Source of the DNA: an uncultured Candidatus Saccharibacteria bacterium
Lineage (GTDB): Bacteria > Patescibacteriota > Saccharimonadia > Saccharimonadales > Saccharimonadaceae
NCBI GenBank assembly: GCA_947307225.1
Contig: CAMZIL010000001.1
Location: 220,120-284,119, forward strand
Reading direction: 5' to 3'
Length of the DNA stretch: 64,000 nt
Shown: positions 23,287-43,864 of the stretch, piece by piece
How positions within the stretch are numbered: position 1 is the stretch's first letter
Layout of the letters: each line of letters opens with the position of its first letter
The notes under the pieces: generated by a model
Told to the model about the DNA's origin: nothing
The model's input: the letters and a program-made list of their open reading frames with translations, nothing else
The model's database searches: none
Position numbers and translations under genes: made by a program

Positions 23287-25067
23287 TAGTTGCTCCAAAC
23301 CGTATTTTGCAGATTTTGCTGATAGCTTGTGCCGTTGCCGGAAGAGTACTTTGGATTGCGGTACCAGCGAACAATTACGCCGTTGCCGTGGATAAGATCT
23401 TCGCGGCCAGCCATTGGTGCGCGACCAGAGCTAAAGCTATAGGAAGCAGAGGCAATGACGGAATCGAAACCTTGGATTTCGCCGACATAAATAAAGGTGT
23501 GGCCGCTGGAAAATGCGATGTCTCCAGCCTGAAGGATACTTGTGTCGACTGGCGTTCCTTCAGATCCATTCAAGAGACGCCAACCGTTTCTTTTTACCCA
23601 AGCTTCCTGTTCGCCGGTTGCGCCGTTGCCGTCATTATAATTTGGTTCGAGGCCAGAGTTTTGAGTAATAACAGTAACGAAGCCGCCACAGTCGATACCA
23701 GGCACGCCATTAACGGAACCGCCGACATAACGTCCTTCACTGATGGATTTTGTGACAGCATTGGCGTATTCCGGCATGCGCTGTAGATATGGGCCCTTGT
23801 GGTATTCTGGCCAAGCGTATGCTTTGACGAGGCTTTCGAAGTTCCCGTTTATTGCGCAGCCCTTGGAATTAATGTTGCTGTTTACGGTGTCATAAAGTGT
23901 CTTTGCAAATAGTTTTGCGCCTTCATCATTAGGGTGAATATAATCATACAAATATTTATCGGCTTTGCCAGCAACTTCTTTTGCCCAGTCAGCAACAACG
24001 ATATTGGAGTTTTTATTTGCAAACTCAAAGAAGAGATCATTGTTTGATTTATAGTTATTAGTTGTGCTCCAATCGGTAACAAAAGTAATGTTTTTATTGG
24101 TGCCGATGGCTTTAATGGCATTGTCAATATCTTGAGAAGTGAGGTTTGAACTGTTTGCGCCAAGTGCGAAGATCACATTATCCTTAATGTCTTTTTTGCT
24201 CTTTGCAATATCGACTGCTTCGTTCCATTTGCGTCCATTTTGCGCATAGATGTCTTTTTCGGTTAGATCTGGGAATTGTGCAAGCAAAGCGGTTTTTGAA
24301 GCAACGGTAATTGAATCGCCGAAGATAGTGAGATTTTTGCCGTCTTCTTTTGAGCTACTGGCAGTACTTCTGCCCTTGCCGGCAAATTCATCGTAGAATT
24401 CACGAGCATATTTGCGGCGGTTTGCAGTGCCCTGATAATAAAGACCAATGTATGGCGTGTAATAAAGAATTGGGCTTTCACCGTTAACGGCGCGTTCGAA
24501 AATTGCAAGGAATGCTTCGGCTGCTGCTTCTGGCGTCGTTTGCTTTTTGACCTCGGTTTGCCAGTCGTAATCATTTTCTGTGAGCGACAGCTCCAACTCG
24601 ATTTCGAGAATTCGATCGAGATCATTTTCTGGAATCTTTTTAGAAGCACCAGCTGGCCAGTATTCTGGCTGTGTGTATTGTCCTAGTCCGGCGTCGGTAA
24701 GTTTATTAATCAACTGAGTACGACGGCTATGACCCCATTGAAATAGACCGAAGAATGATGAATTACTTGCGCGGGTTGGTTCGAGACCGGTTTCTTGCTT
24801 TGCGTTGCCGAGGATACCAGCAGCCTGTGCGTCATTGAAGCCGTTGTCGATATAGAAGTTCCAGATCTTTTCTTCAATAGTATTGCCGGTGAGTTTTGTT
24901 GACGAAGAGCCGCAGAGATCGTCGCTACCGTTTGGGTTGTAATAGTAAATACCGCTACTATCGAACATATCCAAGACATCGTCGTCTGGAAGCGCGGCAA
25001 AAGCCGGCTCGGAAATTAATACTGCCGCGATGATCATTAGAATGGTTGATTTCAGAATGGTTTTCAT
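23286..25067 (-). CDS. Secreted three-domain cell-wall hydrolase: lysozyme-like + SGNH/GDSL esterase + NlpC/P60 peptidase
   Basis: 593 aa with a signal peptide (MKTILKSTILMIIAAVLISEPAFA). The N-domain GILGNAKQETGLEP...FGLFQW resembles the phage-tail-lysozyme family. The middle domain has LTIFGDSITVA (SGNH block I) and DYIHPNDEG (block V). The C-domain has GIDCGGFV (Cys) and SSGHTFIYVG (His) of NlpC/P60. ATGA overlap with 25064..27841. Confidence 0.75.
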   Translation of the reverse strand: MKTILKSTILMIIAAVLISEPAFAALPDDDVLDMFDSSGIYYYNPNGSDDLCGSSSTKLTGNTIEEKIWNFYIDNGFNDAQAAGILGNAKQETGLEPTRASNSSFFGLFQWGHSRRTQLINKLTDAGLGQYTQPEYWPAGASKKIPENDLDRILEIELELSLTENDYDWQTEVKKQTTPEAAAEAFLAIFERAVNGESPILYYTPYIGLYYQGTANRRKYAREFYDEFAGKGRSTASSSKEDGKNLTIFGDSITVASKTALLAQFPDLTEKDIYAQNGRKWNEAVDIAKSKKDIKDNVIFALGANSSNLTSQDIDNAIKAIGTNKNITFVTDWSTTNNYKSNNDLFFEFANKNSNIVVADWAKEVAGKADKYLYDYIHPNDEGAKLFAKTLYDTVNSNINSKGCAINGNFESLVKAYAWPEYHKGPYLQRMPEYANAVTKSISEGRYVGGSVNGVPGIDCGGFVTVITQNSGLEPNYNDGNGATGEQEAWVKRNGWRLLNGSEGTPVDTSILQAGDIAFSSGHTFIYVGEIQGFDSVIASASYSFSSGRAPMAGREDLIHGNGVIVRWYRNPKYSSGNGTSYQQNLQNTVWSN

Positions 25068-27890: not shown

Positions 27891-29684
27891 TTACTTTTTG
27901 GCGTTTGGATTCGTAGTAATAAGCGACTCTTCGGTTTCCGATGCAACGATTTGAATATGGACGTGATTTTGGCCGGCAAAGAAGAGGCCTTGACCGACTG
28001 GGAAGCTTGCGAGACGCTTGCGTTCCTCGCTGGTAAGCTTGAATACGTCAGAGAGAACGTCGACGGCGGACGAAGACTGCTTTAGAAGTAGCTGCATCGA
28101 GGAGTTGTTGACGATAGCGCGGCCCATCTTGGAAGACATAAAGTCCTCAACGTCCTGGGTAATTGTAGTAAGACCGAGATAGTACTTACGAGCGCGCTTA
28201 GCGAGGCTAAAGAGGAAGCTTGCAGAATCTTCATATTTCATAAGCTGCCAGGCCTCATCGACGATGAGCATGCGCTTTTTCTGGTTTGCGCGAGTAATGT
28301 TCCAAATATGGTTCAGGACGATGTACATAGCGACTGGGCGAAGTTCGTCTTCGAGGTCGCGAATGTTGAAGACGACCATCTGGTTGTTGATGTCGATGTT
28401 ACTCTGCTGAGAGAAGATACCAGCGAAAGTACCAGTGGTATATTTGCGAAGGCGCTGTGCGAGACCTGGGCCAGTGCCGCCCATGTGAAGCAAAGTATCG
28501 TAGAGGTTGATGATGGTTGGAGGTGGAGCGGTATGAGTGAGCGGATCGCTGGTAATACCGGCACGTGCGTAAGTATCAATTAAAGCCTGATCGAGGTCTG
28601 CCTCTTCATTTGGGCTAAGGACACCACCGCCAAGCATGAGGCGGAAGAGACCATGGAGCGTGACGAGGTTTGCGCGAAGTGCATCATTGGCATCTTCGGC
28701 ATCGACAACCTTTGGAAGATCGAATGGGTTGATGCGAACATCGGAGCTAAGGCTGAGGCGGATATAGGTGCCACCAACAGCATCAGCGAGTTTCTGATAC
28801 TCGTTTTCTGGGTCGATAATGAGAACTTCAGTGCCGACCATCATGGAACGGAGAGCCTCGAGCTTCACGGTGAAGGATTTACCTGCACCAGACTTTGCGA
28901 AGACGACCATGTTGGCGTTTTCCAGTGAGAAGCGGTCGAAGATAACGAGACCGTTGTTGTGCATGTTGATACCGTAAAGGATACCCTTTTCCTGAGTAAG
29001 GTCTGCGGAAGTGAATGGGAAGCTAGTGGAAATAGCGCCCGTGTTCATGTTGCGGCGAATCTGGAGATGATCAGTACACTGTGGCATGGTACTGTTCATA
29101 CCCTGCTCTTGCTGTGAGCTAGCAACCTTTGTGAAGATCATTTGCTGACCAAAGATGTTTTCAATCTTGTGCTGAACAAACTGAAGCTCGTCTAGAGAGT
29201 CGGCGTAAATAGTAATATATAGTGCGTAGCGGAAGAAGCGTTCGGCGCCAACCTGGAGCTGATCGCGGAGATCCTCGGCATCGGTAATAGCCGCTTCGAG
29301 CTCTGGATCGCGAACTTTACCCTTTTCGCTGTTGATATCCATCGTAGCTTCGAGCTGAGTAACCTTTTTCGTAAGGTTTTTCATAATGACAGCGGTATCG
29401 ACAGGATAAATATACATCGAAACATCGAGCACCTCGTCCATATTAATAATGGAGCTGAGCCAGCCGGTTAGAAGTGTGCGTGGATAGCCGTAGACATACA
29501 TCGTGCGGCCATATTTGGTACCGATGCGGAAATGGTCGGAATGAAATTCGAGACTAGATGGCGAAATGAGATCGCGAAGAGTGGTAATACCAGCTTCAAA
29601 CGCGCGCTGGATTTCGACTTCTTCTTGGAGCTGAGCTTGTGCAGCAATGTCTGCTGCGCTGAGTTGACGTTGTTTTTTACCCAT
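27891..29684 (-). CDS. virB4: VirB4/TrbE-family T4SS ATPase, C-terminal (ATPase) part
   Basis: 597 aa. Walker A VVFAKSGAGKSFTVK, Walker B MLIVDEAWQLM, the upstream IGTKYGRTMYVYGYPRTL...W segment typical of Gram-positive VirB4 (ConE/PrgJ/TcpF type), and FFAGQNHV near the end. Confidence 0.85.
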   Translation of the reverse strand: MGKKQRQLSAADIAAQAQLQEEVEIQRAFEAGITTLRDLISPSSLEFHSDHFRIGTKYGRTMYVYGYPRTLLTGWLSSIINMDEVLDVSMYIYPVDTAVIMKNLTKKVTQLEATMDINSEKGKVRDPELEAAITDAEDLRDQLQVGAERFFRYALYITIYADSLDELQFVQHKIENIFGQQMIFTKVASSQQEQGMNSTMPQCTDHLQIRRNMNTGAISTSFPFTSADLTQEKGILYGINMHNNGLVIFDRFSLENANMVVFAKSGAGKSFTVKLEALRSMMVGTEVLIIDPENEYQKLADAVGGTYIRLSLSSDVRINPFDLPKVVDAEDANDALRANLVTLHGLFRLMLGGGVLSPNEEADLDQALIDTYARAGITSDPLTHTAPPPTIINLYDTLLHMGGTGPGLAQRLRKYTTGTFAGIFSQQSNIDINNQMVVFNIRDLEDELRPVAMYIVLNHIWNITRANQKKRMLIVDEAWQLMKYEDSASFLFSLAKRARKYYLGLTTITQDVEDFMSSKMGRAIVNNSSMQLLLKQSSSAVDVLSDVFKLTSEERKRLASFPVGQGLFFAGQNHVHIQIVASETEESLITTNPNAKK

Positions 29685-29685
29685 T

Positions 29686-30528
29686 TTAGTTCTCCTCTCC
29701 TGGTTCGCCCTTCTTTACATACAGATGCGCGAGTTTATTGAAATCACCGAGTGGTTCGCGGACGGCAGTGTCTGGGTTGTTAAAGTTGTAGTAGAGCTGA
29801 CCGAGTTCCTTGGTGTTTAGACGAACGGACTGAATACCGATTTGAAAGAGACCAGAAACGACGGCTTCGGCGCGGTTGTTGATTTCTGTGACGGCCTTGT
29901 CGTAAGTTGCGCGATCGATGCGCGTTACTGGTGGAGTCTTATCCTTTGTGAAGGTCTTGAAGAAGTTCTTTGACTGTTCAAGAGCTTTTTCGGCTTCCTT
30001 TGAAGTGTAATAAGGAATCACGACGAAGAAGGACTTGTCCATAATGTTTGCTTCTTGGCTAAGGACGTCGATGAAGTTAATGTAATCATCCATAAGAACA
30101 CCGAGGAGCATGTTGTCGTTTTGGCGACGAAGGTCCATGAGGCGATCGATATAAGGAGCAATATCAACGCGCTGAGAACGAACGAGAATTTGAACGGTGA
30201 AAGTTAAGGAGTTGAGGAAGTTTTGATACGAGAATTCGACGGCCTCGCGCTCTTCCTCGGACATAAGATCAAAGTTGATAGATTTACATGCAACGACAGC
30301 GCGGAAGGAGCCATCTTTCATAATAACCATGGAGTCGCGAAGCTCGGAAATAAGGAGGCTAGCCTGCGATGAGTTTGGGTTATCGCGGCGTTGAGCTGGC
30401 TGTTGTTGTTGAGCCGTCGCAATAGTGCGGCCGTTAACGGCCTGTGGTGCTGCCGCTGCGCCTGGCTGTTGTGGCGGCATGAAGCCCGGCTGGGCTGGTT
30501 GTGGTTGTAGTGGTTGATTTGGTTGCAC
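29686..30528 (-). CDS. VirB4 N-terminal-domain protein (separate ORF) with a Gln/Pro-rich leader
   Basis: 280 aa. After about 60 aa of Q/P-rich sequence, ...MVIMKDGSFRAVVACKSINFDLMSEEEREAVEFSYQNFLNSLTFTVQILVRSQRVD...FFVVIPY follows the N-domain pattern of monoderm VirB4 proteins. Its stop TAA (29686-29688) lies 1 nt from the ATG of 27891..29684, which has its own ggagaggag SD. Confidence 0.65.
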   Translation of the reverse strand: MQPNQPLQPQPAQPGFMPPQQPGAAAAPQAVNGRTIATAQQQQPAQRRDNPNSSQASLLISELRDSMVIMKDGSFRAVVACKSINFDLMSEEEREAVEFSYQNFLNSLTFTVQILVRSQRVDIAPYIDRLMDLRRQNDNMLLGVLMDDYINFIDVLSQEANIMDKSFFVVIPYYTSKEAEKALEQSKNFFKTFTKDKTPPVTRIDRATYDKAVTEINNRAEAVVSGLFQIGIQSVRLNTKELGQLYYNFNNPDTAVREPLGDFNKLAHLYVKKGEPGEEN

Positions 30529-30537
30529 GTTGACTCC

Positions 30538-31584
30538 TTAGTGTAATGAAATATAAACTTCGTTATCGTTTCCTTTTTTCTCTTGTATGCGCCTTGCCTG
30601 TTGCGCGATTGTCTCGATCGAGAAATCGGTATTATTAGCAAGGTTTTGCATATCTGCGTCTGGTACTGGCGGGGCTTCTGGTTCTGGAATTGGTTCTGGA
30701 GCCGGAGCGCTCTGCTCTTCGACGGCTGCAACTTCCTCGACGGAAGCTGGCTTTGAGAGCGCATCATGAATTTCGTCGATATCTGGCTGAATCGTTGCGG
30801 CGCTGGCAGCAACGTTGACCTGCCCAGACATCGGGTTGATAGGAGACATTGCTTGCATCTGTGGCGGAAGCGATTCGTAGCCGGTAGTTGGTTCTGGGTT
30901 GTAAGTCGGCATAACTGGAGGCTGGAACGCAACTGGTTCCGGAACCGGCGTTTGATGAGTGATAGTTGGCGTCTCATGTGGAGCGTCGCCATAAATGCTG
31001 TTTTTATTGATAGCGTCACGCATTTGCTCGACGAGTTGAGCATGATGAGTAGCATTGTTCTGCTCTAGAGTTTGGTTGAGATTGTAGCTCTGACTCTTTT
31101 CGTAAATATCCTGCATCTCGGCAGCTTCGTTTGCGACATCATCGCGAAGGTTAGAGTTGGTTTCCTTGATGGCGTAACCTTCGGTATCGACGATGTTGGC
31201 GAGGAAGGAAAGACGATGGCTAGCCTCTTCCTGGCTGAGATCTTTGGTACGGTTTTCCTCAACAACCTTTGGTGCTGTGACGGTAATAGCAGTATCGGAC
31301 TGCCCTGGCATCCAAACGCGTTTTTGTGGTTTCAAATAGAAATCTACAACAGCGGAGAGATAAGTTTCCATCGGCTGATCTTTTTTGAGCGGCAAAGCAA
31401 GAATGCCAAGAAAGATAATGACCGGAATCGGAATAATGACTAATAGTGGAAAAATCTGGAACAAAAGAAAGGCAACAAAACCAAGACCCGCGGCAATCAT
31501 TAGATAGACGAATTGGCGGAAGCTAAAAGGACCGATAAGTTTATCGTCCGCCTCGACATCTTGAGGGACCTTATATTGAGCCAT
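30538..31584 (-). CDS. PrgI-family (VirB3-like) T4SS membrane protein with a long C-terminal extension
   Basis: 348 aa. The N-terminus MAQYKVPQDVEADDKLIGPFSFRQFVYLMIAAGLGFVAFLLF plus a second TM helix matches the PrgI-family signature. It sits immediately upstream of the virB4-like ORFs. Confidence 0.7.
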   Translation of the reverse strand: MAQYKVPQDVEADDKLIGPFSFRQFVYLMIAAGLGFVAFLLFQIFPLLVIIPIPVIIFLGILALPLKKDQPMETYLSAVVDFYLKPQKRVWMPGQSDTAITVTAPKVVEENRTKDLSQEEASHRLSFLANIVDTEGYAIKETNSNLRDDVANEAAEMQDIYEKSQSYNLNQTLEQNNATHHAQLVEQMRDAINKNSIYGDAPHETPTITHQTPVPEPVAFQPPVMPTYNPEPTTGYESLPPQMQAMSPINPMSGQVNVAASAATIQPDIDEIHDALSKPASVEEVAAVEEQSAPAPEPIPEPEAPPVPDADMQNLANNTDFSIETIAQQARRIQEKKGNDNEVYISLH

Positions 31585-31656: not shown

Positions 31657-34584
31657 TTAGGTAAGCTTGATGCCGAGCATCTTGCGTACGGACTGGTTCA
31701 TGCTTGCGCGCTGTGACGACATGTTCGCCTTCTGGAGCGACTCTCTCTGGTTTGCGAGCGTATCGAGAAGCTCACGGCTAACCATACCACCATCGGTTTG
31801 GACACCATCATGGTTGAGCTCGAGGAGCGCATCGTTGAACTGTGCGAGAGTTGCGGTCTTGACGCTTGCGAGCTGGCCAGCGGTCATATCGCGGAAGTAC
31901 TTGACGAGGTTATCGTGGACTTCTTGGCGGTGAGCGTTGAAGAAGGTGTTATCGCCATTCTTTCTATAGCCGTAGGTCATGTACTTGTTGAAGGAAGCGA
32001 GCTGTTCACCATCCATCATGCCAGAACATGCAGACGCACGGAGGTGCTTAATATCTGTGAAGATATAGTGATCATCGTCAAGGAGACCCTTCTTTGCAGC
32101 TGAGAGCATGAAGTTGTACATCGTGCGGTCAGCGCCAGCGTAGATCTTACCATCTTTAACGTTCGTAAGGATGGACTCGATATCGACCATACGGAAGACG
32201 TCGAGATCGTCCTGGTTGTTGTAGATCTTTTCGCCATTAACTTCGTTGTAGGAAAGATCGAGGTGATCGCCTGGCATGAATCTACCATTAAGGAAGGTCT
32301 TGAAGTCGATGAATGGATCGAGGACTGGAGTCTTGCCCTTTGCGATAGCGTGGTTGTATTTACCGCGGCGAATCATGTTAGCCTTAGCCCAAGCCCAGAG
32401 GATAGGGTCATCAGACTTGAGGGCGAGACAGGAGTCGTTGAGCTCCTTCTGGAAGCGGATGTGGTCTTCGCTGTCGCCAACGAGTCCAGCGGTGCCGTCG
32501 CCGAGAATCTCCATAATATCGCCGTAGTCGCCACGTTTAGCCATGACTGCGATAGCTGCGTTCATCGAGTTGTAGTCACCACTCTTGATAGATTCGGTAA
32601 GAGCGTTGCCTGGGATAGTACCAGCTGGAGAATCATCGTAAAGTTCGTAGTAGACGCCCTGGGCTTCCTTGTTGAGCTTGCGGCGAGATGCGATAGCGTC
32701 AGCAAGCGTAAAGTTGATTGCCTGGCGGCCAGTATCATAGAAGGCCTTTTCGGATGCAGTGAGTGGACCAGCAGCGAGTGCGGCGAGTTCGTCGGCATTG
32801 AGAGTCTTGCCAGCGAGACGCTTCTTCTCTGCTTCCTCGTATGCACGCTTCTTGATAGAAATCGTGTCATAATCTTCAGCATTGATGTTGAAGGCATCGA
32901 GAACGCGCTGATGGATTGCGTTGCCCTCCGCATCGACGTGCTCGCGAATAAGCTCAGCACGGCTCTTAGCATTGTTGTGGGTAACGACGCGGCGGCGAGA
33001 TTCGGCAGTGTGGCTATCAACGATAGCATTTTCGTATGCTCTGTTGATAGATCTGACCTGAGCGAGATCGCGTGCGCGGACGCGCTTGTCGGTGCCGTCA
33101 TCCTTGAAGCCTTCATCGAAGTCGCTTTCAATATTCATACGAGTAGTTGCGTAATCAAGCTTGCGGCGCTCGTTCTCATAGTGGCGAATACCACGAGAGT
33201 TGAGGGTGCCGTCACGGCGACGCCAGGTTGCCATTGCGTTGGTGAGGTTACGATCCTTGTTATTAATAGCAAGTTCGTTCGTATCAAACTCACGCTTTAC
33301 ACGCTGGCGCTCGAGGTATTGAGCGAGGCGAGTAGATGGCATCGTAGGATTATGCTTGTTGAGCTGCTTTTGCTTAGCGAGAGCCTGATGGCTGAGGGAC
33401 CAGCGACCAGCAGCTGCCTGAGCAGGCATCGTTGCGCGATGGACGAGACCGTCGATCTTGCCAAGAACAGTATTAGACATACGCATGAGTGGGATGGACA
33501 TGAAGAGTGGAAGAATCTTGACGGCGATACCGAGGACGACGCCGAGCCAGTTGGTTGCGGAAGTGATAATGACGAGACCAGCGAGCTGGGATGCGCCATA
33601 AAGAATGCTAAACATTGGGTAGAAGAACAACATCTGCGCGAGAGTGTGGTACCACTTTTGGAACCACTTCTCGGTGTTTGGAAGCATGTAGGCGATAAGT
33701 GCGACTGGGGAGATTAGGACGAGCAAGAAGATGAGCGCCTGACGAGCTGCCATGGTGATAACAGCGGAAATGACGGCGATAAGGCCAGAAAGAAGAACTG
33801 GAAGAAGGACCCAGATGACGCCACCGATACCACCATATACTACGGCGCCAGCAAAGACTGCGCCGGCTGCGGTACCGATACCGAGCATAGCTGCGACGAT
33901 ACCAGAGACGGATGCGCCACCAGCTGCATCAGAGATGGTACCGTTTTCAATAGCGATGTCTTGGATATTCTTGAAGAAGCCCTGGAAGCTGTTGCCGAGA
34001 ACGTTGCTGACATCGACGGCGAGCGTACAGATAATGTAGCTAAGGTTTACGAGGATGGCAGTAATAATAATGCGCGGGAGAACCTTCTTGATGCCGTAGT
34101 TATTAATGCCGACACCGGTGAGCTGCGAGAAGATGACAACGAGGAAGAACACTACGAATAGTGCGTTTGCGAGGTTCTTGAAGTAATCCCAGACGACGTA
34201 GATAGGAGAGCTGGTATCAGTTGGAATCGGGTTTACTTCGATAATCTGGGTAAGAAGACCGTAGGCGCCATCGATGACATTACCGAAGAGACCTGCGCCC
34301 GGACAAATGATCCAACCCAAACTACCCACCTGGTCGTAACAACTAACTTTAGAGGAGTCCTCATCGTCTCCCTCTTCGCCGGTATCGTTAGTGTTGTTAT
34401 CAGTGGGTTCTGAATTATCAGCTGGGGTCGTAGCACCTGGTTCATCTGTTACAATAGAGGTGTTTGCGTCATTATTATTACCATTACCGGAATTCGGAGT
34501 CGCAAAAACGGGGCCGGATAATGCTAATACGCCAAATACGGCCGCTATAACAGATAGGACGATGCTTTTAATACACTTGCCCAT
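31657..34584 (-). CDS. VirB6/TrbL-like polytopic T4SS membrane protein with a roughly 600-aa C-terminal soluble domain
   Basis: The track ORF runs to 34605. I prefer the ATG at 34584 (MGKCIKSIVLSVIAAVFGVLALSGPVFA, a signal peptide), which lies 9 nt downstream of TGTGCTATAAT. The exposed Cys-containing segment (CYDQVGSLGWIICPGAGLF) and at least 6 TM helices fit the topology of VirB6/ConG-like channel subunits. Confidence 0.6.
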   Translation of the reverse strand: MGKCIKSIVLSVIAAVFGVLALSGPVFATPNSGNGNNNDANTSIVTDEPGATTPADNSEPTDNNTNDTGEEGDDEDSSKVSCYDQVGSLGWIICPGAGLFGNVIDGAYGLLTQIIEVNPIPTDTSSPIYVVWDYFKNLANALFVVFFLVVIFSQLTGVGINNYGIKKVLPRIIITAILVNLSYIICTLAVDVSNVLGNSFQGFFKNIQDIAIENGTISDAAGGASVSGIVAAMLGIGTAAGAVFAGAVVYGGIGGVIWVLLPVLLSGLIAVISAVITMAARQALIFLLVLISPVALIAYMLPNTEKWFQKWYHTLAQMLFFYPMFSILYGASQLAGLVIITSATNWLGVVLGIAVKILPLFMSIPLMRMSNTVLGKIDGLVHRATMPAQAAAGRWSLSHQALAKQKQLNKHNPTMPSTRLAQYLERQRVKREFDTNELAINNKDRNLTNAMATWRRRDGTLNSRGIRHYENERRKLDYATTRMNIESDFDEGFKDDGTDKRVRARDLAQVRSINRAYENAIVDSHTAESRRRVVTHNNAKSRAELIREHVDAEGNAIHQRVLDAFNINAEDYDTISIKKRAYEEAEKKRLAGKTLNADELAALAAGPLTASEKAFYDTGRQAINFTLADAIASRRKLNKEAQGVYYELYDDSPAGTIPGNALTESIKSGDYNSMNAAIAVMAKRGDYGDIMEILGDGTAGLVGDSEDHIRFQKELNDSCLALKSDDPILWAWAKANMIRRGKYNHAIAKGKTPVLDPFIDFKTFLNGRFMPGDHLDLSYNEVNGEKIYNNQDDLDVFRMVDIESILTNVKDGKIYAGADRTMYNFMLSAAKKGLLDDDHYIFTDIKHLRASACSGMMDGEQLASFNKYMTYGYRKNGDNTFFNAHRQEVHDNLVKYFRDMTAGQLASVKTATLAQFNDALLELNHDGVQTDGGMVSRELLDTLANQRESLQKANMSSQRASMNQSVRKMLGIKLT

Positions 34585-34722
34585 AACTATTCTATTATAG
34601 CACACATAAGCATTTTCGTCAAGTATTATGTAGTGATTTTTAGGGTTTTTCGAGGGTTTTTACCATTTTTGCTTAAGTTTTTGCGCTTTTCAGGGCTTTT
34701 ATCGTATAATTAAGGTAATATT

Positions 34723-35199
34723 ATGAAGAAAAAACTTATTTTAGTGCTAGCGGTGGGATTGACGCTGGGTATTTCTCTGTTGGCTGTGCCAGGCGCTTAC
34801 GCTAATAGTAGTTCTAGCCCAAATAGTACAGAGACGACTGGAAATTCGACGGAACCGAAGAAAAAGTGTACTTCTATCCTTCCCGGCGAGCTATGTGATG
34901 ATGACAATAAGGGCGAAGGTATTACATATATTATTAGCCTCGTGATTGCGATTTTGACTGGCGCCGTAGTGGTGGCCGGTACGATCGGTATTATTATTTG
35001 TGGCGTGACCTGGATGACGGCTCGTGAGAATGAGGCACAGGTTGCGATGGCAAAGAAGAGGATGCTCGATATTATAATTGGCTTGGTGGCTTGGGTGCTT
35101 TTGGCACTGGTGGCGAATCTGTTTATTCCAAAGAGTACTGATGAAATCGAAAAAAATAAAAGGGGCGAGATTACGAAGAGCCTCGGGAGTAAAGCATGA
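34723..35199 (+). CDS. Pilin-like T4SS protein (VirB2/TrbC topology), subtype A
   Basis: 158 aa. Signal peptide, an exposed Cys-containing segment, then two hydrophobic helices separated by MTARENEAQVAMAKKRMLDIIIG. Paralogous to the N-terminal module of 42629..43864. Confidence 0.65.
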   Translation: MKKKLILVLAVGLTLGISLLAVPGAYANSSSSPNSTETTGNSTEPKKKCTSILPGELCDDDNKGEGITYIISLVIAILTGAVVVAGTIGIIICGVTWMTARENEAQVAMAKKRMLDIIIGLVAWVLLALVANLFIPKSTDEIEKNKRGEITKSLGSKA

Positions 35200-35852
35200 A
35201 AAAACTAGTAGTTGCTCTAGCGGTGGCTTTTATGTCAGTCCTAGGGCTAGTGATGTTGCCTGCGCAGAATGCGGCGGCAGCAGATTGTAGAACGCATTTC
35301 TTGGGTTTGCCGGCATGGTATGACGGTTTGACCGAAGGCAGCGACTGTCATATTAAGTCGCCTCAAGATGCCGACGGCGTAAAGACCTATGTTTGGACGA
35401 TTGTCTTGAACATCGTCTGTATGGTTCTCGGCGTAGTCGGTTATGTTGCGATCGGTTTCGTGATGTGGGGCGGTATTCAATATATGCTCGCTCAAGGTGA
35501 TCCTGGCAAGGTGGCTAGGGGTAAAAAGACGATTTTGAACGCGATCATTGGTTTGATTATTACGATGTCAGCCTCGATTTTAAGTGGCGCGATTTCCGGA
35601 ATCGTATCTGGTGCCAGCACCGGTAGCGGCAAGGCATTCTTTGGCGATCTCTTTGGCAAGGTCTTCTTCTGGAGCGGTGTCATTGCAGTCATTATGATTG
35701 TTTACGGTGGCATCCAATATATTACAAGCGTTGGCAACCCAGCAGGTATTGCTAAGGCGAAAAACACTATTCTCTACTCGCTAGTCGGTTTGATTATCGT
35801 AATTGCGGCGGCGGCGATTGTAAGCACGGTAGTAGGAGCAATACCAGAATGA
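35196..35852 (+). CDS. Pilin-like T4SS protein with two tandem pilin modules
   Basis: 218 aa. The first module ends in GGIQYMLAQGDPGKVARGKKTILNAIIGLIITMSAS and the second in GGIQYITSVGNPAGIAKAKNTILYSLVGLIIVIAAAAIV. ATGA overlaps at both ends. Confidence 0.7.
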   Translation: MKKLVVALAVAFMSVLGLVMLPAQNAAAADCRTHFLGLPAWYDGLTEGSDCHIKSPQDADGVKTYVWTIVLNIVCMVLGVVGYVAIGFVMWGGIQYMLAQGDPGKVARGKKTILNAIIGLIITMSASILSGAISGIVSGASTGSGKAFFGDLFGKVFFWSGVIAVIMIVYGGIQYITSVGNPAGIAKAKNTILYSLVGLIIVIAAAAIVSTVVGAIPE

Positions 35853-36235
35853 AAAAACTAATAGCATTAATATTCGCAGCAATTATTTCGTTTGGTGCGC
35901 TATGCGTAGTCCCAACCTACGCCTCGGCAGCCAACAACGACGCATGTAATAAATATAAGAATAAGAGCGACCCAAACTACAAGATTGTTTGTGGCAGCGG
36001 CAGTGAGGAAAAGGCTGAGAACACCGTGAAGAGCGTTCTACAGACAGTCTTCCTCTGGACTGGTATCATCGCTGTAATTGTTATTGTGATTGGCGGCATT
36101 TTCTATACGATTTCCCAGGGCGATCCTGGCAAGATTAAGAAGGCGAAGGATACGATTTTGTATGCAATCATTGGTTTGATTGTGTCGTTGCTTTCTTTCG
36201 CGATCGTTACATTTGTTTTGGACAAAATACAATAA
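35849..36235 (+). CDS. Pilin-like T4SS protein, subtype B
   Basis: 128 aa. Signal peptide, then the shared core GGIFYTISQGDPGKIKKAKDTILYAIIGLIVSLLSFAIVTFVL. Confidence 0.7.
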   Translation: MKKLIALIFAAIISFGALCVVPTYASAANNDACNKYKNKSDPNYKIVCGSGSEEKAENTVKSVLQTVFLWTGIIAVIVIVIGGIFYTISQGDPGKIKKAKDTILYAIIGLIVSLLSFAIVTFVLDKIQ

Positions 36236-36247
36236 TAAGGAGGTGTT

Positions 36248-36529
36248 ATGAGCCTAAAGCTTTTGGCGGAAGGTATTCGACAACAGGTAAATAATGTCGG
36301 TGGCCAGGATTTGGAGACCGATGTTAGCAAAGGTATCAAGGCGGCAATTTTCTGCGCCGGTATCGTGGCGGTGTTCGTGATTATCCTCGGCGGCGTCAAT
36401 TACATGATGTCTCAGGGCGATTCGGGCAAAATTGCAAAAGCAAAGAACACTATTATATATGGTTTGATTGGCTTGATTGTGACGATTTTAGCCTTCGCAA
36501 TCGTAAGCTTTGTCCTAAGTAGATTTTAA
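36248..36529 (+). CDS. Pilin-like T4SS protein, subtype B (short, no classical signal peptide)
   Basis: 93 aa with the core GGVNYMMSQGDSGKIAKAKNTIIYGLIGLIVTILAFAIVSFVL. An aaggagg SD lies upstream. Confidence 0.65.
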   Translation: MSLKLLAEGIRQQVNNVGGQDLETDVSKGIKAAIFCAGIVAVFVIILGGVNYMMSQGDSGKIAKAKNTIIYGLIGLIVTILAFAIVSFVLSRF

Positions 36530-36580
36530 TTACGAATATGGTATTATATAAATAAGGAACTTTTCTAAAAAGGAGAAAGA

Positions 36581-37087
36581 ATGAAAAAACTAGGTAAAAT
36601 CTTAAAAGGTGGAGCGATTGCGATCTTCGTAGCGCTTCTCGTCACCGTTCCGGTATTTGCAGATGCAAAGTCGAACTGTGAGAAGAAGCTTAACGTTAAG
36701 CTCACGAACGGTACCAAGCCAAGTGGCAACGGTACTTGGATTAAGTGTGGCGGCACGATGAAGATCGGCAACACTACTTACTCTATCTATGGTCACGACC
36801 AAGCAGCTTGTGCAAACGCTGGTCAGGCTGCAAGCAACCCAGAGCAGTGTGAAGGCGATGATCTTAACAGTGTTATCCAGATCATCATCAACACCATTAT
36901 CTTTGCTATCGGTATGGTTTCCGTTATCATGATTATCCTTGGTGGTATTAGCTATGCAACTTCCCAGGGTGATCCTGCTAAGGTCAAGAAAGGCAAAGAC
37001 ACCATCCTTTACGGTATTATCGGTTTGGTCGTTGCGCTTCTCGCATTTGCAATTGTCAGCTTCGTATTAAACGCACTAAGTAGCTAG
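36581..37087 (+). CDS. Pilin-like T4SS protein, subtype B
   Basis: 168 aa. Signal peptide, an exposed Cys-rich segment, and the core GGISYATSQGDPAKVKKGKDTILYGIIGLVVALLAFAIVSFVLNAL. An aaaggag SD lies upstream. Confidence 0.7.
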   Translation: MKKLGKILKGGAIAIFVALLVTVPVFADAKSNCEKKLNVKLTNGTKPSGNGTWIKCGGTMKIGNTTYSIYGHDQAACANAGQAASNPEQCEGDDLNSVIQIIINTIIFAIGMVSVIMIILGGISYATSQGDPAKVKKGKDTILYGIIGLVVALLAFAIVSFVLNALSS

Positions 37088-37095
37088 GAGTAAAA

Positions 37096-37407
37096 ATGTC
37101 AGTACTATCAATTCTCGCAAGCACTCAAGCAGGTCAAGCCAAGAACGGCGTTAATGCTATCGGTGGTAGTAGTAGCGACGATCTCACTGCAAGCATCAGC
37201 ACCATCATCAATGCAGTTATCTTTGTTATCGGTATTGTCGCCGTTATCATGATTATCCTCGGCGGTATCAGCTATGCTACCTCCCAGGGCGACCCAGCAA
37301 AGGTTAAAAAAGGTAAGGACACTATCCTTTACGGCATCATCGGTTTGATTGTTGCCCTTCTTGCCTTCGCGATTGTTGGCTTCGTGCTCAACGCATTGCA
37401 GAAATAA
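37096..37407 (+). CDS. Pilin-like T4SS protein, subtype B (short)
   Basis: 103 aa. The core GGISYATSQGDPAKVKKGKDTILYGIIGLIVALLAFAIVGFVLNAL is nearly identical in protein to 36581..37087 but has many synonymous differences. Confidence 0.7.
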   Translation: MSVLSILASTQAGQAKNGVNAIGGSSSDDLTASISTIINAVIFVIGIVAVIMIILGGISYATSQGDPAKVKKGKDTILYGIIGLIVALLAFAIVGFVLNALQK

Positions 37408-37414
37408 GTCTAGA

Positions 37415-37442
37415 GAAACTTCCCTTCGGGGAAGTTTTTTGT
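37415..37442 (+). terminator. Terminator of the pilin operon
   Basis: gaaacttccc-ttcg-gggaagtttc-type hairpin followed by a T-run. Confidence 0.8.
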
Positions 37443-37467
37443 TGGTCGGAGATTTTCACTAGGGCAC

Positions 37468-37497
37468 AAAAATACCTCTCGCAAGAGAGGTATTTTA
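37468..37497 (-). terminator. Terminator downstream of the hsp20 gene
   Basis: aaaaatacctctc-gcaa-gagaggtatttt palindromic hairpin flanked by A/T runs. Confidence 0.75.
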
Positions 37498-37508
37498 AAA
37501 CGCAGTTA

Positions 37509-38018
37509 TTAGTTAATGGTGATGCGCTTTGGTTCCTCGACCTTTTCCTTTTCAAAGGTAATGGTGAGAACGCCATCTTTGAGGATCGCTTCGACGCCAT
37601 CTTCTACGACCTGTACTGGAAGTGCGATGGTGCGGCTGAATTCGCCCCAATAGCATTCCTGGATGTGCCACTGAGTAGCTTTTTCATCTTCGCCGCCGCT
37701 GAGAACGCCGGAGATGGTAAGGATGTTGTCGGAAATAGAAACATCGAGATCTTTGCGTTCGATGCCTGCAGTGCGGGCTTTGATAATAAGCTTATCGGCA
37801 GTTTCGTAAACATCGACAGCTAGCTGGCCAGGGAGATTTTCGGTCTCGTCTTCCCAGTTGTCTTCGGTGGTTTCTTCTGCGTAAGTTTCTTCGACTGGAG
37901 CGTCGTCTGCGGATTCCACCAATCCTTCGTCGGACAAACCAGCGTTGCCTTCTTCCTCAGAGAGGAAAGCGGCGGTGAGCTCATCGTCTAAGCTCATTTC
38001 GTCTTGTTTGCGAGCCAT
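37509..38018 (-). CDS. Hsp20/alpha-crystallin family small heat-shock protein
   Basis: 169 aa. Acidic N-terminus, then an alpha-crystallin domain (LAVDVYETADKLIIKARTAGIERKDLDVSISDNILTISG...FSRTIALP...AILKDGVLTITFEK). Confidence 0.85.
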   Translation of the reverse strand: MARKQDEMSLDDELTAAFLSEEEGNAGLSDEGLVESADDAPVEETYAEETTEDNWEDETENLPGQLAVDVYETADKLIIKARTAGIERKDLDVSISDNILTISGVLSGGEDEKATQWHIQECYWGEFSRTIALPVQVVEDGVEAILKDGVLTITFEKEKVEEPKRITIN

Positions 38019-38055
38019 AGTTTATACTCCTCCACTATTTACACTCTTACGCTTT

Positions 38056-38084
38056 ATTATAGAGAGCTGTTTAAGTAAAATCAA
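38056..38084 (-). promoter_or_regulatory. Sigma-70-type promoter for hsp20
   Basis: On the minus strand: TTGATT (38084-38079), a 17-nt spacer, then TATAAT (38061-38056), about 38 nt upstream of the ATG at 38018. Confidence 0.55.
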
Positions 38085-38103
38085 GAGAAAGGAGGATTTT
38101 GTT

Positions 38104-38751
38104 GTGAAAAATACAATACTTAAAAACATAGGCGAAATCTTTTGTCCGCATATCTGTATTTCTTGTGGAAAAACCGGTGGAATACTCTGTAAATGTTGTA
38201 AAAATGACATCATTTCTAAGCACGAGCAGAAATGCTTGGTTTGCGGAGAATGACTCCAAAACCATGTCTGTCTGCGCTGTTCGTTGCCCTTTTCTGAGCA
38301 ATTTTGTGTTGGAAAACGTGACGGCGCATTAAAACAGCTTATTCATGTGTACAAATATGATTCTGTTCGAGCGGCAAGTTTTGTGTTCGCTGAATTGCTG
38401 AGCGGCATGGTAGGTGGCGATTATTGTCTGGTGCCGCTGCCGACAATTGGTCGCCATATTCGCGAAAGGGGTTTTGACCATGTTGAACTGTTTTGCAAGA
38501 AGACGGGGATGCCAGTTGAGAGGCTGCTGTTTAGGGCGAATAATAGCGTGCAGGTCGGGGCGACTAGCGAGCAGCGTCGAGAGCAAGCGAAGAAAGCGTA
38601 TGGTTTAAGAGGTAGCGTTCGAAGTGGTAAGAGATATTTGTTAGTTGATGATGTATGGACGACTGGTAGCTCGATGCTCGCGGCTGCAGAGATTCTTCGT
38701 GCGGCCGGAACAAAAAACCTCGCAATCGCGGTGATTGCGAGGAGTATATAA
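38104..38751 (+). pseudogene. comFC: comFC (ComF-family phosphoribosyltransferase-fold competence protein) interrupted by one in-frame TGA
   Basis: GTG start at 38104 after an aaggagga SD. The N-terminal zinc-ribbon part (CPHICISCGK...CKCC...CLVCGE) ends at the TGA at 38251-38253. The same frame continues LQNHVCLRCSLPF...VGKRDGALKQLIHVYKY...LVPLPT...RGFDH...YLLVDDVWTTGSS (PRT motif) to 38751. The track shows this as two ORFs (37945..38253 and 38284..38751). Confidence 0.75.
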
Positions 38752-38763
38752 GAATTTGGATAT

Positions 38764-39168
38764 TTAAACGGTGGTTTCGCCGCCGACTGCGTTGATGACG
38801 AAGTTGACGATTGCGTAAGCTAGGATCGAGATGATAAGACCGATGATAGCGTACATGATGGTGTTCTTTGCATCGGTGACCTTCTTACTATCGCCACCAG
38901 AGATGACATAGCGAAGACCGCCATAGATAAGCATGATAACAGAGATGATACCAACTGCGTAGAGAACGGTGTTGGTAATCTTTGTGAAGACGCCATTGAC
39001 GCCGACGAGCTCGGAAGGCATGCCTGCACCTTTTGCGGTGTTTGCACCAGCCTGAGCTGGGTTTACCGAGTTGCTGGCTTCGGCGGCCATAGCGCGACCG
39101 GCCATTAGGGTGACAGCTGCTGCTGCACCAGTGATAACTTGGCTAGCTTTTTTGAAGAATTTTTTCAT
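38764..39168 (-). CDS. Pilin-like T4SS protein, subtype B (dispersed copy)
   Basis: 134 aa. Signal peptide, then the core GGLRYVISGGDSKKVTDAKNTIMYAIIGLIISILAYAIVNFVINAV. Confidence 0.65.
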   Translation of the reverse strand: MKKFFKKASQVITGAAAAVTLMAGRAMAAEASNSVNPAQAGANTAKGAGMPSELVGVNGVFTKITNTVLYAVGIISVIMLIYGGLRYVISGGDSKKVTDAKNTIMYAIIGLIISILAYAIVNFVINAVGGETTV

Positions 39169-39334
39169 AGGTTTGTTTAAATATCCTTAACGATGTTCCT
39201 ATTATATAACAAAAACATAATCTTTGTCCAGTAGACAAAGGAGCCGGCGCAAAACGACGTTCGTCATAGCTCCTCGGTTTACCGGACGAAAGCGTTTGAT
39301 TATAAGATACGATTGTGGTAGAATTGAGTGTGTT

Positions 39335-39427
39335 GGAGGGTTACCCAAGTGGCTGAAGGGGACGGTTTGCTAAATCGTTAGACTGGCGAAAGCTGGTGCG
39401 AGAGTTCGAATCTCTCACCCTCCGCCA
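39335..39427 (+). tRNA. tRNA-Ser (anticodon GCU), CCA encoded
   Basis: Hand fold. Acceptor GGAGGGT/ACCCTCC, anticodon stem ACGGT/ATCGT with loop TTGCTAA, a long variable arm, T-loop TTCGAAT, discriminator G, then CCA. Confidence 0.85.
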
Positions 39428-39499
39428 AAAGATGCTCTAGTTTAGGGCATTTTTTGATTGTTTTTCTTGTTAAAATGCTTGTGTTATAATGAAATTACT

Positions 39500-39964
39500 A
39501 TGGCTGAAAAGACAATTGTGAACTGGGAAGCTCGCGAATTTATCGAATATAAAAAGAACTTTGGGTGGTACGCAGGTTTTGCCCTAGTTGTAATTGCCTT
39601 ATGTTTGTTGGCATTTTTCTTGCAGCAATGGACATTTTTGGCGCTCGTGATCGTTGCGGCGATAGCATTGTTGACCTATACGATGCGTCCTCCACGCATG
39701 CTTCACTATTCCTTATCTGATAAGGGTCTTTCTGAAGGTAATAATTTGCATACTTTCGAACAGTTCAAATCTTTCGGCGTTTTGAATGAAAACAACCACT
39801 ATTGCATCATCTTGGTGCCGAAAAAGAGATTCGGAACTCGTGTCCGCGTTTACTTCCCTGAGACCGAAGGTGAACAGATCGTTGATGTCTTTGGCGCTCG
39901 TTTACCGATGGAGCCAGTCAAACTTGATGCGCTCGACAAACTAGTGCGTTTCTTGCGCATTTAG
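39500..39964 (+). CDS. Hypothetical membrane protein (two TM helices + soluble domain)
   Basis: I prefer the ATG at 39500 (MAEKTIVNWEAREF...), 9 nt downstream of TGTTATAAT, over the track start at 39458. Two adjacent hydrophobic helices are followed by a roughly 90-aa domain. Confidence 0.55.
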   Translation: MAEKTIVNWEAREFIEYKKNFGWYAGFALVVIALCLLAFFLQQWTFLALVIVAAIALLTYTMRPPRMLHYSLSDKGLSEGNNLHTFEQFKSFGVLNENNHYCIILVPKKRFGTRVRVYFPETEGEQIVDVFGARLPMEPVKLDALDKLVRFLRI

Positions 39965-42628: not shown

Positions 42629-43864
42629 ATGATAAAACGTAAATCTTTCTTTGCAGCCGCAATTATAGCGGTGGCAGCGTTTGTGTTAAATGTGGCGGTT
42701 GCGCCTGCTACTTCTGCTCTTGAGGCTTGTAAGTGCGATAACCCAGTAGAATCTAATATCCTCGGTAACTGTGAATACCAAGGTAAAAAGATGTACTGCG
42801 ATCAGAGCGGCGAAGGCAAAGGTATCAAGAACCTCTTAGTCATCGGCGTCAATATTCTTCTCGCAGGTGTTGTTGTGGCCGGCACGGTCGGCATTATTAT
42901 ATCTGGCGTCACCATCATGACAGCTCGTGAAGACGAAGCGCAGGTCGCCAAAGCAAAGAGGCGTATCCTCGATATCGTTATCGGTATTGCCGCATTTGCC
43001 CTATTCTGGTTGATGATTAATCTCTTGTTGCCGTCAGTGGATAAATCTGTCGTTAATACGGATGAATCTGGTATGAACCAACAGGGGCCAGGTGGAGGTC
43101 CAAACTCTTCGAAGCCGACGACTCCGAATTCGACTCCATCAAATCCGTCCAACCCATCAAATCCGTCTAATCCATCTAATCCATCAACTCCATCGAACCC
43201 GAATTCAACTCCGGTAAATCCGGTAAGCCCTTCAAACCCGAACGGTACGCCACCAATTACGGCAACGAAGGCCGGCAAACCAATCCCTCCACTCAAAGGT
43301 AACTCTAATACTATTCCTTGCGATCCGCGTACGACGCAGTACAAGACTGTAACGAATGCGCATTACAATAAAACAAAAGTTGCAGCCTTAAACCTTTGTA
43401 AAGTGCCAAATATTACGGGGTCCAATATTGTCAACTCGCGCGTTTCGGGTGCTTTTTATGAAATGGCGCAGGCGTATTACAACAAGTATGGAAAAAAGTT
43501 AAATGGTTCTAGCTCGTTTAGGGCATATGAAGATCAGGTGTATTTTTGGAATTGTTATCAGGAGAAAAAGCGTGGCGTAACAAATCCGTGCAATGGTGGT
43601 AATACAGCCGCCGAGCCTGGTTCGTCTAATCATGAGATGGGCCTGGCGATCGACTTTGATGTGCCAAAAGCAACCAACCAAAACAACCCAGTAACTTCTT
43701 GCCCGTCATCTCCGGGCTGGCCAAATGTATCAGATAAGAAGCAGAGTATAAATCGTTGGAAATATACTGAAATGTCGCGTTGGTTCTGCAATAATCTCAG
43801 CACGTTTGGTCTTAGTCGAAGGGTCAACGACGAACCATGGCACGTGGACCCGTCTAGCTATTAA
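42629..43864 (+). CDS. Fusion protein: pilin-like subtype A membrane module + SNP-repeat linker + peptidase M15 (VanY/LD-carboxypeptidase-like) domain
   Basis: 411 aa. The N-terminal 135 aa parallel 34723..35199 (GKGIKNLLVIGVNILLAGVVVAGTVGIIISGVTIMTAREDEAQVAKAKRRILDIVIG). A PSNPSNPSNPSNPS linker follows. The C-domain has SSFRAYEDQ, GSSNHEMGLAIDF (SxHxxGxAxD) and DEPWHVD (ExxH). Confidence 0.75.
   Translation: MIKRKSFFAAAIIAVAAFVLNVAVAPATSALEACKCDNPVESNILGNCEYQGKKMYCDQSGEGKGIKNLLVIGVNILLAGVVVAGTVGIIISGVTIMTAREDEAQVAKAKRRILDIVIGIAAFALFWLMINLLLPSVDKSVVNTDESGMNQQGPGGGPNSSKPTTPNSTPSNPSNPSNPSNPSNPSTPSNPNSTPVNPVSPSNPNGTPPITATKAGKPIPPLKGNSNTIPCDPRTTQYKTVTNAHYNKTKVAALNLCKVPNITGSNIVNSRVSGAFYEMAQAYYNKYGKKLNGSSSFRAYEDQVYFWNCYQEKKRGVTNPCNGGNTAAEPGSSNHEMGLAIDFDVPKATNQNNPVTSCPSSPGWPNVSDKKQSINRWKYTEMSRWFCNNLSTFGLSRRVNDEPWHVDPSSY

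Follow-up and report, generated by a model that had tools for sequence, protein, structure and literature searches.

Pilin-like genes beside the type IV secretion genes of a Saccharibacterium: probably a fixed set of specialised subunits rather than a variable repertoire

Why does a Saccharibacterium's type IV secretion system (T4SS) locus carry so many copies of one kind of small pilin-like gene? The question is raised by a 64,000-nucleotide (nt) stretch from an uncultured Candidatus Saccharibacteria bacterium (assembly GCA_947307225.1, contig CAMZIL010000001.1, positions 220,120 to 284,119; hereafter the window), in which six tandem pilin-like genes and a dispersed copy lie between positions 34723 and 39168 and a further pilin module is fused to an enzyme domain. 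Saccharibacteria cannot grow on host bacteria without their T4SS, whose oddest feature is the pilin array, given that the T4SSs of monoderm bacteria were long thought to be pilin-free. A first-pass annotation of this DNA had offered two explanations for the many copies, antigenic or host-range diversification and a heteromeric fibre, of which the first fares poorly below and the second, while unproven, is the better supported. The genes are probably the VirB2-like pilin set of a chromosomal, origin-proximal Saccharibacterium T4SS of the monoderm (MPF-FATA-like) type, composed of fixed, specialised paralogues that most likely co-assemble.

A six-frame scan of the window with a profile built from the modules recovers nine pilin modules in eight open reading frames (ORFs) at 88 to 180 bits. 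The next-best match in the window scores 6.9 bits (E 0.44), so that the real modules stand far beyond chance. An ORF listing agrees with the coordinates given in the first-pass annotation, but the array, while real and composed of two subtypes, had been over-counted: the six tandem genes hold seven modules and not eight, and the window holds seven modules of subtype B plus two of subtype A, whereas nine and two had been claimed, an excess of two. Subtype B comprises two modules in the gene at 35196-35852 and one in each of five other genes, and subtype A comprises the gene at 34723-35199 and the N-terminus of the ORF at 42629-43864. The B modules are 28% to 79% identical to one another (28% to 57% apart from one pair) and the two A modules 52%, whereas identity between A and B is 18% to 24%; the A and B profiles are homologous (hhalign probability 96.8%, E 2.5e-10). 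Only G32, K49, and G58 are invariant in all nine modules. The core motif is similar among all subtype-B copies, and the consensus proposed earlier describes it approximately, with two to four departures in each of the two modules of 35196-35852 and in the module of 38764-39168.

The tandem genes (34723-37407, plus strand) differ in architecture. Gene 1 (34723-35199) encodes a subtype-A pilin-like protein of 158 amino acids (aa) with a signal peptide, a Cys pair, and a two-helix hairpin with its loop MTARENEAQVAMAKKR. Gene 2 (35196-35852, 218 aa) is a two-module, four-helix pilin, gene 3 (35849-36235, 128 aa) a single-module pilin with signal peptide and Cys pair, and gene 4 (36248-36529, 93 aa) a short pilin without signal peptide. 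Gene 5 (36581-37087, 168 aa) has an exposed domain of about 65 aa with four cysteines, and gene 6 (37096-37407, 103 aa) is again short and without signal peptide. The dispersed subtype-B pilin (38764-39168, minus strand, 134 aa) is apparently monocistronic, and the pilin-VanY fusion (42629-43864, plus strand, 411 aa) consists of a subtype-A module, a Pro/Ser/Asn-rich linker, and a VanY (M15) D,D-carboxypeptidase domain. Judged by eye, all the proteins except those of genes 4 and 6, six of eight in total, begin with a signal-peptide-like N-terminus, and in five proteins the exposed segment carries paired cysteines. The loops between the helices are basic (net charge +1 to +3), which fits an N-out, C-out topology with a cytoplasmic loop; each module would be a two-helix membrane hairpin with both termini facing outward and a short basic loop inside the cell.

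Judged from their sequences, these are genes of the T4SS pilin family, as the first-pass annotation had proposed. The comparison with hidden Markov models of T4SS pilin families that it had recommended bears this out for every subtype-B gene, that is, six of the eight, all of which pass the gathering cut-off of PF18895 (T4SS_pilin, 26.6 bits) at 38.1 to 77.3 bits (gene 2, 77.3 in two stretches; gene 3, 38.1; gene 4, 40.4; gene 5, 40.5; gene 6, 49.7; dispersed pilin, 42.7). The subtype-A proteins fall below that cut-off (gene 1, 23.7 bits; VanY fusion, 20.7 bits, with 42.9 bits for VanY PF02557). Five subtype-B genes score 40.6 to 44.1 bits on the NCBIfam model NF045849 (Mbov_0395, the pilin-like conjugal transfer family of mycoplasma integrative and conjugative elements, ICEs), just above its cut-off of 40 bits, a marginal pass that indicates family-level similarity only, the model being typed "equivalog"; the dispersed copy (29.6 bits) and the subtype-A proteins (16 to 19 bits) lie below it. 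There are also sub-threshold matches to DUF4134 and DUF6112, both T4SS pilin-like families, and matches to the VirB2/TrbC family PF04956 are on record for several to many orthologues of the window pilins. AlphaFold2 models the dispersed pilin as a hairpin (helices 60-89 and 94-128) with a predicted local distance difference test (pLDDT) score of 81 to 92 over the hairpin, and the two-module protein of gene 2 as four long helices (pLDDT 78).

To compare the copies between genomes, modules were counted in ten related loci, nine of which reach into the array and six of which, with a 10-kb flank, span it whole. The subtype-A gene stands first in all nine loci that reach the array. In the six fully spanned loci it is followed by a two-module gene and then by three to five characteristic single-module genes, and an opposite-strand pilin copy lies about 1.3 kb beyond the array. 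The array order is kept in the nine loci though their VirB6-like proteins are only 40% to 57% identical. A neighbour-joining tree built from 71 modules groups each of positions 1, 2, 3, 4, 6, and 8 into its own clade, with one module per genome, and lineage-specific turnover is seen at positions 5 and 7 only; the modules cluster by array position, not by genome (gene 3 falls in the position-4 clade and gene 5 in the position-6 clade). Each paralogue also keeps its architecture across species, from the presence or absence of a signal peptide to the extent of the exposed domain and the arrangement of its cysteines. Gene 2 has 315 full-length homologues, and across 38 homologues the residues C31, W41, Y42, and C51 of the exposed segment are invariant. 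The dispersed pilin is the most conserved copy, with 73% to 93% full-length identity to the best 120 of 3992 matches.

A closer strain gives the same picture. Two public metagenomes contain a contig that matches part of the array at 94.7% identity; over 1.6 kb, which cover genes 1 (in part) to 4 with their exposed parts, this contig differs from the window by 84 synonymous and 4 non-synonymous changes, a ratio of non-synonymous to synonymous substitution rates (dN/dS) of 0 to 0.04; genes 3 and 4 have no amino-acid change at all. The array genes are positional orthologues under strong purifying selection.

The six tandem genes are also a tight operon. ATGA stop-start overlaps link gene 1 to gene 2 and gene 2 to gene 3, and the intergenic gaps of the array are 8 to 51 nt long, with Shine-Dalgarno sequences (AAGGAGG upstream of gene 4). 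With the genes packed this tightly into one operon, the copies are probably co-expressed and not switched. A search of 34300-39600 found no cassettes, long identical repeats, or invertible segments, the only inverted repeats being diverged modules. Nucleotide identity between copies is 60% to 81%; the upper value belongs to the modules of genes 5 and 6 (over 193 nt) and suggests that the gene 6 module is a recent copy of the gene 5 module or was converted from it. A terminator-like hairpin with a T run (37420-37432, plus strand), found by a consensus scan, directly follows gene 6. The dispersed pilin has a promoter-like site at 39201-39230 (minus strand; TGGACA, 18 nt, TATAAT; 11 of 12 positions) and a terminator-like hairpin downstream at 38718-38742 (minus strand), each of these three signals being a pattern match only.

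Arrays of this kind have been described before. McLean et al. 2020 (PMC7427843) mention an "array of small Sec-secreted proteins" in TM7x, and the passages on pilins in Quinonero-Coronel et al. 2025 (PMC12102498) report 441 arrays of 2 to 11 pilin genes in 383 Patescibacteria assemblies, made up of tandem PF18895/PF04956 genes that, like those of the window, lie near virB4; such arrays are commonest in Saccharimonadia. These passages note low identity between copies and suggest adaptation to different hosts, by analogy with the VirB2 paralogues of Bartonella and Anaplasma, as a question left open. A 2025 review (PMC12857230) calls the array remarkable and speculates on a pilus-like conduit. 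Low inter-copy identity and the absence of a relaxase and a coupling protein nearby are shared between the window and the published Patescibacterial and TM7x arrays. The window locus is therefore a further example of a published feature and adds no new kind of system; the first-pass annotation, which took so many pilins to be unusual, had singled out what is the norm in Saccharimonadia (PMC12102498, PMC10633639, PMC7427843) and had arrived at interpretations already in print. Positional orthology and purifying selection are tested here and not in the array passages of PMC12102498 and PMC7427843, which likewise make no mention of multi-module genes or enzyme fusions.

The closest known counterpart is that of Candidatus Southlakia epibionticum ML1 (S. 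epibionticum), in which Wang et al. 2023 in Cell (PMC10633639) found a series of pilin subunits within an essential T4SS cluster. In their Table S1, six pilin genes in a row are each scored essential by transposon sequencing; Hsp20, ComFC, and an opposite-strand, non-essential pilin follow. The gene order matches that of the window over SEML1_0001-0024, with orthology judged from position only: dnaA, dnaN, recF, lysozyme, a large protein, VirB4, the TrsD-like protein, PrgI, the VirB6-like protein, six divergent PF18895 genes (SEML1_0014-0019), Hsp20, ComFC, and the opposite-strand pilin (SEML1_0024). Short copies without signal peptide are present in both. ML1 differs in that it apparently has no two-module gene, to judge by the gene lengths and Pfam positions in Tables S1 and S2, and in that its large membrane proteins number two, against one in the window. 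Essentiality of the array pilins has been shown in this relative.

Further evidence on how the modules might be arranged comes from proteins that contain several of them. Searched against 1.84 billion representative proteins, the module profile matched 78,080 clusters, and the top matches, from public metagenomes (P0264-P0409), have 3 to 17 concatenated modules behind one signal peptide, one example being 1775 aa long with 17 modules. One six-module poly-pilin (L016:1777-3435) is an uninterrupted ORF (table 11) inside a pilin array; its modules are 76% to 95% identical at the nucleotide level, a range at which repeat assembly artefacts are possible. Literature searches on PF18895 and on Saccharibacteria, the T4SS, and epibionts returned no description of poly-pilins. 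Hairpins that are covalently joined by short external linkers must adjoin in whatever they build, and the two-module gene 2 and the proteins of 3 to 17 modules together indicate that different modules can sit side by side. Fusions to other domains also recur. Homologues of the window's VanY fusion carry VanY either before or after the module (P0241-P0253), and in the related locus L005 an array pilin bears two Big_2 Ig-like domains (L005:7123-8736, minus strand). From the predicted topology, the fused VanY and Big_2 domains would lie outside the cell. The multi-module genes and the fusions fit a mixed-subunit structure that can display cargo, and they would be compatible with a pure membrane anchor too.

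The favoured explanation is that the copies are an old, fixed set of specialised paralogues, not interchangeable variants. Positional orthology, purifying selection, and the essentiality of each array copy in S. epibionticum argue against both a variable repertoire and simple redundancy. Most likely the paralogues co-assemble into one heteromeric structure or have separate positions within it (base, shaft, and tip, for instance). Reasoning from VirB2 and PrgF, one would expect the proteins to insert into the membrane, with cleavage of the signal peptide in the six that have one; a VirB4-driven machine would extract the hairpins, which would pile up on a VirB6-like platform to form a tube or stalk that crosses the cell wall. 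In such a structure the basic loop would line the lumen, and the Cys-stabilised N-terminal segments and C-terminal fused domains would face outside. Fibre formation, heteromeric assembly, and any substrate carried are inferred. A stronger form of the same idea, which is tentative and on balance doubtful, is an obligately heteromeric T4SS conduit in which the modules occupy fixed neighbouring positions and some carry outward cargo (VanY, Ig-like domains). Neighbours in such a conduit would in some lineages be a single polypeptide, from the two-module gene up to the 17-module poly-pilins, and the cargo may act on the host cell wall at the contact between epibiont and host. To our knowledge, all solved T4SS pili consist of a single pilin species, so that an obligate heteromer would be a new architecture.

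Several observations weigh against a heteromeric pilin structure of fixed parts. We know of no pilus or stalk of these proteins that has been seen in any Patescibacterium. The best scores on TrbC/VirB2 (PF04956) are 21.0 to 22.0 bits (E about 2e-4) for three proteins, among them gene 1 at 21.9 bits, below the cut-off of 27.9 bits. Foldseek searches of both AlphaFold2 models against the PDB, in which the signal-peptide helix was kept in the query models and may have hurt the search, retrieved nothing at E<=0.001, and VirB2 and TraA were absent from the results; what they returned were generic helical hairpins (chemoreceptor, CnrX, syntaxin, 14-3-3), none significant. The nine-module profile run against all PDB chains retrieved profilins only (E 0.3 to 2), a chance resemblance in GG-KYM-QG-PG-V-RGKK. 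These structure and sequence searches being uninformative, the case for a VirB2 fold rests on family profiles and architecture. For PrgF, the VirB2-like protein of the enterococcal plasmid pCF10, relatedness in sequence to the subtype-B profile is not demonstrable (6.0 bits in hmmsearch), and hhalign gives a probability of 21.8%, with the two helices and the loop between them aligned collinearly. Essentiality was called in S. epibionticum on 11 to 15 insertion sites per gene (PMC10633639), and the calls for upstream genes could reflect polar effects. SEML1_0024, the positional counterpart of the dispersed pilin, is non-essential in co-culture, so that the most conserved copy corresponds to a dispensable one and conservation and essentiality are not simply aligned; the dispersed pilin was considered as the major subunit, a role that this counterpart makes less likely. 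Between species, the exposed parts are 30% to 43% identical and the cores 47% to 77% (the upper value being that of gene 5), in keeping with the conserved cores and divergent exposed parts of the first-pass annotation, with the dispersed pilin as an exception (exposed 73%, core 88%). Finally, copy number varies at the distal end of the array.

The last two points are also arguments for a diversification repertoire, in which alternative exposed surfaces would evade host defences or match host strains, the possibility that Quinonero-Coronel et al. raise in their passages on Bartonella and Anaplasma (PMC12102498). The paralogues do share cores while their exposed N-termini differ strongly, and the comparison of copy number across relatives recommended by the first-pass annotation did find gain and loss at positions 5 to 7: loci L005 and L006 have an extra array gene, the close relative L015 lacks the sixth gene, and genes 5 and 6 of the window look like products of recent duplication or conversion. 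Taken with that similarity, the loss in L015 confines the change to the distal end. A repertoire of variants is hard to reconcile with positional orthologues kept across deep divergence, with a dN/dS near zero and two unchanged genes, among genes 1 (in part) to 4, between strains about 95% identical even in the exposed parts, or with the invariant Cys pair and aromatic residues in the exposed segment of gene 2. Nor are there, in the 34300-39600 interval searched, silent cassettes, long identical repeats, or invertible segments that would permit switching in a repertoire of the Neisseria pilE/pilS kind; the single tight operon would express its copies together, and every array gene is scored essential in S. 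epibionticum. Diversification, the main idea of the first-pass annotation, is therefore an unlikely explanation of the array.

Two other accounts were weighed. If the modules were membrane anchors or scaffolds that hold extracytoplasmic domains or organise the T4SS, with no polymerisation into a fibre, then the fusions to VanY in both domain orders and to Big_2 domains in L005 would fit, as would fold searches that return generic hairpins only and the fact that no fibre has been observed. Most copies, though, have little beyond the hairpin to anchor (genes 4 and 6 encode just 93 and 103 aa), poly-pilins that consist of 6 to 17 hairpins and nothing else would be odd anchors, and the conserved basic loop motif together with the links to TrbC, DUF4134, and the ICE pilin-like family points to a VirB2-type role, all of which leaves a pure anchor improbable. 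The copies could instead be redundant, kept for the dosage of one kind of subunit. A core motif that is similar in all subtype-B copies would suit this, and the location near the origin has been proposed to raise expression (PMC12102498). Paralogues that are 28% to 57% identical apart from one pair, that each have a distinct architecture kept across species, and that are each scored essential in the S. epibionticum array are not what dosage calls for, and we consider this account very unlikely.

The genes divergent from the array encode the rest of a recognisable T4SS. Nearest to it is a VirB6-like platform candidate (31657-34605, minus strand), a polytopic membrane protein of 982 aa with about seven hydrophobic segments in its first 375 residues and no Pfam or NCBIfam match; its position corresponds to that of SEML1_0013/0011 of S. 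epibionticum, which were annotated as VirB6-like by fold (PMC10633639). All relatives of this protein at 40% to 57% identity come from metagenome-assembled genomes of Saccharibacteria, and two of these genomes bear the names of sheep and yak rumen isolates. Further along the minus strand lie PrgI (VirB3-like, 30538-31584; PF12666, 51.9 bits), a 280-aa TrsD/TraC-N-like protein (29686-30528) with a weak TraC_F_IV match, a VirB4-type ATPase (27891-29684; P-loop_TraG 104 bits, also AAA_10 and DUF87), and a lysozyme (23286-25067; Phage_lysozyme2, 82.6 bits) in the VirB1/PrgK-like role. The divergent neighbourhood also holds a 925-aa protein, and dnaA, dnaN, and recF lie just beyond the T4SS genes. 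No VirB5 was recognised among the window genes scanned. The orthologue of the TrsD-like protein in the related locus L014 bears PF26593 (TraC-like). Synteny between the array and the VirB4 cluster extends over nine related loci, S. epibionticum, and a Firmicutes plasmid, and the arrangement is kept in L002-L010 and L014, which supports the view, put forward in the first-pass annotation, that the pilin genes belong with the adjacent secretion genes. The TraC/TrsD-like N-terminal part and the VirB4 P-loop part are encoded by separate adjacent genes in different frames, in the window as in S. epibionticum and the plasmid cluster. Such split TrsD/VirB4 genes are a known feature of this T4SS class.

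The Firmicutes plasmid bears on where these pilins came from. A tblastn search of gene 6 against 72,556 plasmids gave one weak match (E 0.02), which became informative once its context was read: the megaplasmid NZ_CP062975.1 of Pontibacillus sp. ALD_SL1, typed as non-mobilizable in PLSDB, has a T4SS cluster at 351801-361354 with the gene order of the window. Two adjacent pilin-like genes (151 and 145 aa) each encode a signal peptide and a Cys pair, and a Pontibacillus pilin scores 58.8 bits on the subtype-B profile; the TrsD-like protein of the window is 28% identical to its equivalent there and the VirB4 37% identical to the CD1110-family VirB4 of that cluster. That a Firmicutes plasmid has a homologous cluster with two pilins suggests that these proteins, and a small array as well, are part of the monoderm T4SS lineage and did not come from diderm systems, a point that Quinonero-Coronel et al. 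leave open (PMC12102498). The Pontibacillus protein, which belongs to the Mbov_0395/ICE_MMCAP2_0565 family, shares with the window pilins the signal peptide, the Cys pair, the hairpin, and the motif Y-ITSQGDP-K. Members of that family come in one or two copies on mobile elements, compared with eight at a chromosomal origin.

Other systems resemble the array in part. PrgF of Enterococcus faecalis pCF10 (ter Beek et al. 2025, bioRxiv 10.64898/2025.12.18.695078) is essential for the function of its system; a published model stacks it on a pentamer of VirB6, the loop facing the lumen and both termini outside, and its loop cysteine has been labelled from outside. Like the window pilins, it is small and consists of two helices joined by a short charged loop, and the prgF-prgK order matches that of the window in placing PrgF just upstream of the VirB6-like, PrgI, VirB4, and lysozyme genes. 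PrgF differs in being a single 75-aa copy with neither signal peptide nor exposed domain, and its loop is acidic where those of the window are basic. The VirB2/TrbC/TraA pilins of diderm bacteria (PF04956) share the hairpin topology and the association with VirB4 and VirB6, whereas the window genes fall below the cut-off of that family and their host is monoderm and lacks an outer-membrane complex. For Bartonella and Anaplasma, a diversifying pattern has been proposed in their arrays of VirB2 paralogues; the window gives no sign of one. As an analogy only, type IV pili and the pseudopili of type II secretion have major and minor pilins, non-redundant paralogues encoded together that take defined positions in one filament; their fold, assembly machine, and evolutionary origin are unrelated.

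Two genes other than pilins lie between the array and the dispersed copy, Hsp20 (37509-38018, minus strand) and a comFC-like gene (from about 37945 to 38751, plus strand). The latter encodes zinc-finger CxxC motifs followed by a phosphoribosyltransferase domain and has an in-frame TGA at 38251-38253. In-frame stops are also present in the comFC orthologues of L002, L003, L005, L006, L007, L009, L014, and L015, only that of L008 being intact, and all 11 of the stops checked are TGA. The site is common to the window, L002, L014, and L015, and two further TGAs align with Trp codons of other species. Beyond the TGA the domain is conserved and in frame, and the true terminator, read in L014 and L015, is TAA. 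Among 40 long ORFs of the window, 26 end in TAA, 9 in TAG, and 5 in TGA, so that TGA is still a stop in this genome; in a window-wide scan for other genes with an in-frame TGA, the noise was too high. The comFC pattern reflects either parallel decay in these lineages or programmed UGA read-through. Just beyond the dispersed pilin lies a tRNA-Ser (GCT; 39335-39427, plus strand). S. epibionticum carries a tRNA-Ser in the corresponding region as well, but there the tRNA and the pilin are ordered differently. ARAGORN and Rfam scans returned four tRNAs and nothing else.

For the biology of Saccharibacteria, the comparative tests narrow the options for the pilin array: its copies look like fixed, specialised, and probably co-assembling parts, and not like a variable repertoire. 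A mixed-subunit structure is accordingly the thing to look for. Should the T4SS conduit turn out to be obligately heteromeric, it would offer a concrete model of how Saccharibacteria breach their Gram-positive hosts.

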